A DNA stretch of 64,000 nt. It comes from Escherichia coli. Its GTDB lineage: Bacteria > Pseudomonadota > Gammaproteobacteria > Enterobacterales > Enterobacteriaceae. Of this stretch, positions 508 to 3,700 are shown piece by piece; the stretch's first letter is position 1; each line of letters begins with the position of its first letter. The position numbers and the translations under genes were made by a program. Location of the stretch: NCBI RefSeq assembly GCF_022846255.1, contig NZ_AP025682.1. One strand, 5' to 3'. The notes beneath the pieces were generated by a model. It was not told where the DNA came from, ran no database searches, and worked only from the letters and a program-made list of their open reading frames with translations.

Positions 508-693
508 TTAGTGGTCGGCATCTTCTCGATCACGTTGATGAAATGTTGGATGTAGCCGGAATCGTTCCAGTCGATAGACGGAACCTGTAAATAATTCAGA
601 GAATTTATGGATCTCAAGTCTGAAGGAAAACGGATCTTCAGGAGCAGGAACCTCATAATCGTAAATAGCAACCAGCTCTTTTTGCACGATCAT
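508..693 (-). CDS. hypothetical 61-aa protein, possibly a shortened yehK-like gene
   Basis: ORF track; sits where yehK lies in K-12 gene order (downstream of yehI). In frame with the yehI stop codon, with no alternative start upstream. Product identity not verified. Confidence 0.3.
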   Translation of the reverse strand: MIVQKELVAIYDYEVPAPEDPFSFRLEIHKFSELFTGSVYRLERFRLHPTFHQRDREDADH

Positions 694-753
694 CGCTTTT
701 CCCGGTGGTAGGTCGTGTTGATAACGGGCAGTTGCATCACTGCCCGCTGTGTT

Positions 754-3700
754 TTAATGGAAAATAACGTCGGGTGCGCTTAACGCTTCACTCAAATCAA
801 ACACATCAAGTTCGGCAAAAGTGACGGATTTATTGTCACGGTAAACCCGAAGAGAACGGAAGCTCATTAGCGCTTTGCTATCAACATTGTAGTGGTTAAA
901 GCCGGGTGAAAACTTAAGGACCAGCCGGTACGCACCTAAGTCATAGACAAATGCGTCCTCATAGCCTGACTCCCAGCCTTTGTATCGCATTCCCATAAGT
1001 TGACCAACGGTAGCGGATTTACCTTCCCAGCGAGTCAGGCTGTTACTGGCTGACTCGTCAGGTGTGAGCAGCACCGTGCGCCGCGCCAACTGGCGAAAAG
1101 GCGGCATAATTTCGTAATCGGCAAAAAGCTGTGCAAATTCACTGCGCATTTCTGCTGCCATTTCTAACGGGTGGGCAATGCCAATCAGAGCATCTGCAGG
1201 CAGGTCAATGGACTCATCTTGTGCATTGCAGAACTCCCCCTCTGCGGCCACACGAAAGGCGTTGAGTAAACGACGCGGTTCATTTGCCGGATAAACCCCC
1301 CATATTAATCGCTGGGTAACCAGGCGGGTAAAGGGATGATTAACAAACAGAGAATGAAAATCTGCCAGCGACCAGCGTCGGGTGGTGCGCAGGGCAGTTT
1401 CAAGACGCGGGAGCAGGTTTTTGCTCACCTGAGAGGCATCTTTTTTTAGCCCTTTTAGTCGGGCCAGTGCCTCGGGGGCTTTCAGTTGATCGTCATCGGC
1501 GCGCAACCGGGGAACGCTTTTCTGGCGAACGTTTTGTTGATCGTAGATAACCGGGTTGAGGTTTTCATCGAAGCGAACGGTAAATTGCCGTGGACCAAAA
1601 TCAAAAATCAACGCCTGCGGATCATCAAGACCCAGTGTTGGGACTAATCTGTCCGCTAACTCTTCCTGGCTTAGCCCGCGATTTTCTGCGACCACCTGAA
1701 GAAATTCCGCCGCGTTATCACGTAAGGAGCGGGATTTCGCCCGTTGGGATATATGGTGCAGCTGTATCAGCGCCATATCATTATTCATCAGGGTAAGGAT
1801 GTTCAGGCCACTGACAGCACGGGCAGATTTGCCTTCTTGTGGCCAGGCGAGGATCTGTGTCGTCAGATCCCGAGCCGTGCTTTCGTCACCAAAGAGACTT
1901 AACGCCAGAAATGCCCAGTTGTCTTTTGCGGGGGCTCCAGCTTGTTGCCATGCGGTGAAAAGATCCCAGGCAAAAGCTGCCAGCGTTTGCGGCTGGCAAA
2001 ACGTTTTCAGCTGTTCCAGTCCGCCATAAAAACGTCCGCCCTGGGTAAAGCGCAGCATTTCGCCGATAATTTCCAGAGCGTCATCGGTAACAGGCTGATT
2101 ATTCTTGATAAGGCGCGGCCTGGACCACATTGCCGGATGCCAGAAATCAGGAGCTTTTGGAATACGTGCCGGGTAAATTTCTATTGGACCCAGTTTAAGT
2201 AATTGCTCCAGGGCAGGCCATACATCTGTACGCTGCCAGCGGTTTGCCACGGTTTGCAGTAATTCGCCATGCCCTTGTTCATACAGTAAACGCAGGGCAA
2301 GTAATGCAGCTTCGCTATTATCGCTGGGTTTTGTAAAGACAAGAGGGATAAGTGCAGTAGCCGTATGTTCCGGCCATTGTAAAATCCACTGGCGAGCCAG
2401 ATCACGCTGCGCCGCGAAACGTCGCCAGACGCGGGCAACGGGCAGGGCCAGTTCTGTTGCGCCGAAATTTAAAATTAACGGAAATGTTTCTTTTGGATGA
2501 TGTGAAAAAGCCAATAACAGGCCAGGTAATGTATCCAACCCGAGGATACTGAGAAAATAGTCCTCACCCGCGAACAGATGCTTTTTCTCATTGATACGCA
2601 GCCAGAAAGTCAAAGCCATCTCACGCGGCAACTGTGCCAATAAATACAGGTTCCAGACACTCTTTTCCGGACGATAACGTGAGTAGCTATCATTTTCCCA
2701 GGTGTTAATTAACGCTTCAACGTCGCCGGAACGAAGCGCCTGTTCGGCTGATTTTGCTTCCGTGGAGTGCCAGCCATTGTTGATTTCCTCTACTCTGCGC
2801 GGGGAGTAATGCCACTGACCCACTAATGATTTGCGCGCCGCATCCAGTTTGCCGGGCAGTATATAATTCCGGAACAGCCATACATCATCCCCAAAACCTA
2901 GCTCCTGTAGTACAACTCGACCACTTTTTCGTTCCATGCGTTCCGTAAAAGATCCCGTGCTGAAATAACGGGCAGACTCTGTGGCGGCAAGTCTCTCTCG
3001 TTCGCCTGGTTGCCAGCGGGCTTTGGGCGCTAATTCAAGAGGCACTAAATCAAGGCGCAGCAATGCCGTTTTTTTCTTACCTCGCCACGGTGGAGAAACA
3101 AGTATTTCTGGCAGGTCGTTGCTATGAGTACTCTCGAAAGCAAGTTTTGGCGATGCCGATAAATAACCATTCACCACTGCCTGGGCTTGTGTACTTAAGC
3201 ACGGCATCACCTCTTCTGCCAGTTGTGGCTGCGATGCCATCAGCGTTTGTAACAGCGTATGCCAGTATTCATCACGTGCTTTTTGCTGTGCAGGCAGCTT
3301 TTTGTCTTCGATGATGGGATAACCAGGGCGCGCAGGGGGGGCTTTTAACGCCAGCAGTTCTGCCAGTGCGGCGAGCGTCGCATGGGGGAAGTTTTTACTG
3401 TATTTAGCCACACGTTGCAGGCTGGGTTTGTTTTTATCAGCCACCAGTAGCAAGGTGCGGATGACTTGCGGATGGTTAATTTGTACCAGCAGACTGCCGC
3501 AATCTTCTTTATGTGCATACATCGAGAGGCGCGGAACGGCTGCCAGTCCTTGTTCGCGCAAAAGGGCAGCGCAGGCCGCGTAGCCGAAGTGGTTTTCATG
3601 CGACATGTAGCTGGCTTCTCGATCGCTAAATATATCCTGGCTCCAGTAACGTGCGAGTTCTTTCACCGCCTTAGGGTCATCAGCAACAACTTTTAACCAC

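Follow-up and report, generated by a model that had tools for sequence, protein, structure and literature searches.

Organization of the yehI–yehK interval

The window analysed here, a stretch of 64,000 nucleotides (nt) of Escherichia coli DNA (assembly GCF_022846255.1, contig NZ_AP025682.1), carries near its start, on the minus strand, yehI, a spacer with a stem–loop and a 61-codon open reading frame (ORF), followed on the plus strand by the type I toxin gene zorO (Table 1). The 601 window bases compared show no difference from E. coli O150:H6 strain FEX669 (100% identity), in which PGAP annotates a 'yehK, frameshifted' pseudogene (H7994_RS21485), equivalent to window positions 377–693, between yehI and yehL. 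The ORF occupies the position of the YehK family, directly 3′ of yehI and 5′ of yehL, as judged from the annotations of FEX669, K-12 and CFT073. The stretch upstream of its ATG is purine-rich and varies among orthologues (GGGAA, GGGGA, GAGAA or GGGAT).

The zorO gene is convergent with yehK and encodes a peptide identical to published ZorO (PMC6669753), and the PGAP annotation of the identical strain FEX669 has nothing between yehK and yehL. A zorO–orzO type I toxin–antitoxin system has been described for the yehI–yehL interval of EDL933 (Fozo 2010; Wen 2014); because the 5′ untranslated region of zorO extends to the window start, orzO lies outside the window. The palindrome next to the yehK stop codon is absent from K-12, the sequence of which diverges just past that codon, and it may be an edge of the zor–orz insertion or a yehK terminator. 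An Rfam scan of window positions 1–1500 returned no curated match, the three plant microRNA matches on the palindrome being at chance level (E 0.17–0.82).

Table 1 Features of the yehI–yehK–zorO region (window positions)
Feature	Position	Strand	Details and basis
zorO type I toxin gene	178–267	plus	29-aa product, MDTLTQKLTVLIAVLELLVALLRLIDLLK
Terminator-like hairpin after zorO	289–312		AAGGGGGAA/TTCCCCCTT
Palindrome	322–376		two 25-nt arms with 88% complementarity around a 5-nt spacer; begins one base past the stop codon of yehK
yehK 3′ part	377–511	minus	codons 62–105 and TAA (377–379), now in the −1 frame; translation
ACA codon (I70T)	485–487	minus	substitution at an otherwise invariant residue; alignments
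61-codon ORF	508–693	minus	yehK codons 1–60, one out-of-frame His codon and a premature TAA (508–510)
Frameshift	513–514	minus	one C lost from a C-run, in the variable YehK linker; alignments
yehK ATG	691–693	minus	
yehI–yehK spacer	694–753	minus	20 sense codons, stop-free, NTAGSDATARYQHDLPPGKA
Putative Shine–Dalgarno-like GGGAA	699–703	minus	5 nt 5′ of the yehK ATG; read from sequence
Conserved RNA stem–loop	723–748	minus	loop GAUGCA; 10 pairs including one G·U and one A–U
yehI stop codon (TAA)	754–756	minus	
yehI	754–4386	minus	DUF4132 protein, 1210 aa; ORF list and PGAP annotation of FEX669

A one-base deletion truncates yehK

A sequence-only reading of the window had suggested that the ORF might be a shortened yehK homologue and had proposed an alignment with K-12 yehK, which revealed a single missing C. 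The K-12 protein (WP_000636925.1, 105 aa) is intact at the same place and shares 57 of the 61 ORF residues, and all of the residues that are invariant in the N-terminal half of the YehK alignment are present in the ORF. Where K-12 has GAC CCG CTA and LF82 has GAC CCA CTA, the window reads GAC CAC TAA (511–516), and putting the missing C back yields full-length YehK in alignment with both. The 44 C-terminal codons (LINDALIY...NQEIE) remain open in the −1 frame as far as their own TAA. Translation from the normal yehK ATG would therefore, with the C lost between codons 60 and 61, end after 61 residues; the ORF is short because the deletion shifted the frame.

An uninterrupted YehK-type ORF of about 100–106 codons, with the fourth strand (NDALIYIRDE) and the C-terminal helix, is lacking at this locus. 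With the stop after codon 61 and the C-terminal half shifted into another frame, yehK here is a pseudogene belonging to the family rather than one of its functional members. The proposed yehK identity was thus borne out by residue identity and locus, and the notion of a naturally short homologue gives way to a fragment of a frameshifted pseudogene. The earlier reading had also held that a product with no homologue and no coding conservation would tell against it; homologues exist and purifying selection is seen. The yehK gene of CFT073 (C_RS12550) is likewise annotated by PGAP as a 'frameshifted' pseudogene; the yehK frameshift pseudogene is already known from reference annotation, and its finding here is ordinary.

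Spread and history of the deletion allele

Of 5,426 complete E. coli genomes, 926 (about 17%, or one in six) contain a match to a 52-mer that bridges the deletion, 910 records doing so at 99% identity or more, whereas the K-12-type intact sequence across the site is at least 99% identical in 3,326 records. Because the deletion recurs at this frequency, in hundreds of independent complete assemblies, a sequencing error is ruled out as the cause of the missing C. Carriers identified with the 52-mer include CFT073, Nissle 1917, ABU 83972 and ATCC 25922, and a second search added UM146 and an O25b:H4-ST131 genome, which have the identical one-base gap; we take all six to be phylogroup B2 strains. 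LF82, with B2-type sequence, has an intact yehK with neither the deletion nor I70T, and this genome shows that the related lineage does not carry the deletion universally.

The deletion is accompanied by a second change. An ATA-to-ACA substitution (I70T) is common to the window and CFT073, and falls in the block NDALIYIRDE that is invariant in every aligned intact YehK. Between the window and CFT073, yehK differs at nine sites in the 5′ 136 nt and at none in the 3′ 195 nt, which include the deletion. Since the 3′ 195 nt are identical, the differences between the 5′ haplotypes probably arose before the deletion and became linked to it by recombination, and we read the window allele, from this distribution of differences, as a recombinant mosaic haplotype. 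The frameshift and the linked I70T provide a clean lineage marker for many extraintestinal pathogenic and probiotic strains.

Conservation and predicted fold of intact YehK

A word-indexed search found YehK homologues in Escherichia and Shigella only. The full profile search gave 61 representatives, of which about 40 are remote proteins of 100–120 aa that match nearly the whole profile, across both halves. Two remote relatives of about 220 aa are tandem-duplicated. E. coli O8:H8 has a yehK variant of 117 aa, extended at its C terminus (retrieved locus 573–926) and annotated only as 'hypothetical protein'. Between Escherichia species, YehK has a dN/dS of 0.1–0.25, similar for codons 1–51 and from codon 63 to the end, and a value of about 1 in the linker (codons 52–62) that is home to the deletion. 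By these ratios, intact YehK is a real protein under purifying selection.

AlphaFold2 with 42 sequences predicted a single compact domain (pLDDT 89.4, pTM 0.79); the model obtained with only 11 close homologues was unusable (pLDDT 46.5). The predicted chain comprises strands at residues 6–15, 22–31 and 34–47, a low-confidence linker, a fourth strand at 64–71 and a helix at 85–100. From this layout, the 61-aa product would be without strand 4 and the only long helix; loss of function is the most likely outcome and is well supported. The peptide may well be made, given that the start codon and the Shine–Dalgarno-like sequence are intact.

Scans of YehK and the 61-aa ORF against Pfam, NCBIfam and PADLOC assigned no family, and a sub-threshold Phage_30_8 match (E 0.06) was judged to be noise. 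YehI and YehH had no PADLOC match. Foldseek of the PDB with the YehK model returned nothing significant (best E 0.4, TM about 0.3), and a YehK profile search of PDB sequences found only designed helical repeat proteins (E > 0.07). Three remote YehK-like proteins lie on short contigs among unrelated neighbours (DUF4265, TPR), with no link to DUF4132 and no functional lead. YehK is thus an uncharacterized family of about 100–120 aa for which Pfam and NCBIfam have no model, yet it receives a confident single-domain prediction.

The shared frame of yehI and yehK is coincidental

Reading of the minus strand confirmed that the 61-aa ORF lies in the same frame as yehI, with 20 sense codons between the yehI TAA and its ATG. 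A run of 20 stop-free codons has a probability of 0.52 in shuffled sequence and of 0.50 empirically in this window, so that, with a one-in-three chance of a matching frame, the arrangement is expected by chance at about 0.17; the spacer is also open in frame 1. Given this chance level and the second open frame, the coincidence is unremarkable.

The spacer measures 60 nt in E. fergusonii, in a diverged metagenomic orthologue and in the compared E. coli genomes with the exception of O111:H8, which has 61 nt; E. albertii has 59 nt and E. marmotae 52 nt. In O111:H8, the A-run after the yehI stop codon has one more A (retrieved locus 501–579). With spacers of 52, 59, 60 and 61 nt among relatives, the combination of frame and open spacer is not conserved. 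None of 74 YehK homologues has a genuine N-terminal extension; those database entries that are longer either run on at the C terminus or come from assemblies full of errors. The further suggestion that the ORF is a remnant of an ancestral longer reading frame finds no support in the spacer lengths, the lack of extensions (0 of 74) and the chance level of about 17%. The shared frame is a coincidence without function, and the frame relation is not significant; it is a by-product of the 60-nt spacer. We do not consider it worth pursuing.

A conserved stem–loop follows yehI

The perfect 7-bp hairpin noticed in the spacer (GGGCAGT-GATGCA-ACTGCCC) is present, and occurs once in the window, at 726–745 and not, as first placed, two bases away at 724–743. 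Eight perfect pairs, six of them G–C, span 725–746. The sense strand folds at −18.3 kcal/mol (z = −5.4), better than all 200 shuffled sequences; the antisense strand folds at −15.4 kcal/mol, and orthologues fold at −17.5 to −23 kcal/mol. Across eight Escherichia junctions, 97.5% of the cells in an alignment of the ten stem pairs are paired. Five pairs are invariant and four vary, on one side only; compensatory double changes were not found in these eight junctions, which therefore give no formal covariation. Loop and flanking sequences are variable and contain indels. On the yehI/yehK strand the four one-sided changes produce G·U or G–C pairs, and on the other strand they would produce A·C mismatches. 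The restriction of stem changes to wobble-compatible ones, together with the more stable sense fold, suggests that the stem functions in the sense RNA. We regard the hairpin, on this comparative evidence, as real and conserved on the sense strand throughout the genus. It is a feature of the yehI–yehK mRNA, separate from the frameshift.

In the most diverged orthologue, AUUUUUA follows the stem, which there qualifies as a terminator on the sense strand. In E. coli, a U-rich tract 3′ of the stem is absent from the sense strand (tail GUUAUCAAC) under the scan criterion of at least five T in eight, and the pattern scan finds a terminator-like arrangement on the antisense strand only. The available part of the K-12 Term-seq supplements (Adams 2021) lists, for this weakly expressed operon, no yehI/yehK 3′ end at the hairpin. 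The only sense 3′ ends given there for the locus, classed as 'orphan', precede yehL by 150 and 111 nt (MG1655 2204446 and 2204485, plus strand). These K-12 ends fall in the spacer that carries zor–orz in other strains. The TERMITe supplements do not mention the yehI–yehK locus. We put about even odds on the hairpin being a weak (leaky) intrinsic terminator or a 3′-end-protecting stem–loop after yehI. Its role is open to easy testing.

Interpretation and alternatives

Taken together, these data describe an annotated, lineage-wide yehK frameshift pseudogene, a chance coincidence of frame and an ordinary conserved intercistronic stem–loop. We assign a probability of roughly 0.92 to the reading that takes the ORF for the 5′ portion of a deletion-inactivated yehK, sees no meaning in its frame relation to yehI and treats the hairpin as a separate, genuine and conserved element. 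A suspicious small ORF proves to be a gene fragment that reference annotation had already flagged, and it matters little.

The strongest competing view of the ORF is that selection has kept the 61-aa product as a functional shortened YehK, perhaps together with a 39-aa C-terminal fragment initiated at a TTG (494–496). In favour of this view, neither the start codon nor the region upstream of it is damaged, a large and successful clade is fixed for the allele, the 39-aa ORF (377–496) covers most of the C-terminal half, and the 5′ part differs between the window and CFT073 by five synonymous and four non-synonymous changes (dN/dS 0.22). However, those 5′ differences are most likely older than the deletion; the predicted fold is a single domain from which the fragment loses strand 4 and the long helix; every full-length relative found has both halves in one chain; and the C-terminal remnant has I70T, with a TTG start that would also drop the conserved INDA. 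We consider such a product very unlikely. Slimmer still is the chance that a split YehK, made of the three-strand 61-aa piece and possibly a re-initiated 39-aa piece, has kept or acquired a function in the frameshift lineage and that, separately, the stem–loop is a regulated attenuator uncoupling yehK from yehHI. Recovery of full-length YehK through programmed ribosomal frameshifting or transcriptional slippage deserves almost no credence: the downstream frame is open to the normal stop and the deletion lies within a short C-run, but a −1 shift would be needed at C-CAC-UAA, where the site (GAC CAC UAA UAA) contains neither a slippery heptamer (X XXY YYZ) nor an RF2-type +1 motif (CUU UGA), the homopolymer, only CC, is too short for polymerase slippage, and I70T goes along with the deletion. 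Equally close to nil is our estimate for readthrough of the yehI stop codon into yehK, or descent from a YehI–YehK fusion protein. The same frame and 20 stop-free codons do occur in this strain, K-12 and E. fergusonii, but the frame is broken in O111:H8, E. albertii and E. marmotae, the spacer outside the stem changes like non-coding DNA, indels included, and, with no real N-terminal extension in any homologue and an arrangement that chance readily supplies, this reading is already contradicted.

For the hairpin, the alternative is an intrinsic terminator on the plus strand that would act on transcripts antisense to yehK, arising, for instance, from zorO readthrough or from a sigma-S-dependent antisense promoter. 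In its support, the scan flags the plus strand (tail CTGTGTTTTA), zorO is transcribed towards yehK in the window, and a run-off array detected a sigma-S-dependent antisense signal in the K-12 yehI–yehL interval (PMC3141248). Against it, all four one-sided stem changes would be A·C mismatches on that strand, the antisense fold is the weaker one, and K-12 keeps the hairpin although it lacks zorO; moreover, the antisense tail, which coincides in part with the last codons and stop of yehI, may owe its T-richness to coding constraints. We consider an antisense terminator unlikely, and less likely than a role on the sense strand.

Comparison with known systems

Set beside K-12 yehK, the window gene has the same locus, start and 60-nt spacer, and its 3′ remainder aligns base for base; it differs in lacking one C at codon 60/61, which brings in the premature TAA, and in the downstream I70T, and is a pseudogene here. 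With the CFT073 pseudogene it shares the deletion, I70T and the whole 3′ 195 nt, and differs at nine sites in the 5′ 136 nt. The hairpin resembles intrinsic terminators and intercistronic stabilizing stem–loops in its GC-rich stem of 8–10 bp, its 6-nt loop, its location right after a stop codon and its conservation across the genus; a U5 run, as expected after a terminator stem, follows it in the most diverged orthologue, whereas the E. coli sense tail is U-poor. As described for the yehI–yehL interval of EDL933, the yehK–yehL spacer here is occupied by zorO–orzO, and the ZorO peptide is identical; this locus is a neighbour only, on the opposite strand and downstream of yehK, and stands apart from the finding on yehK.
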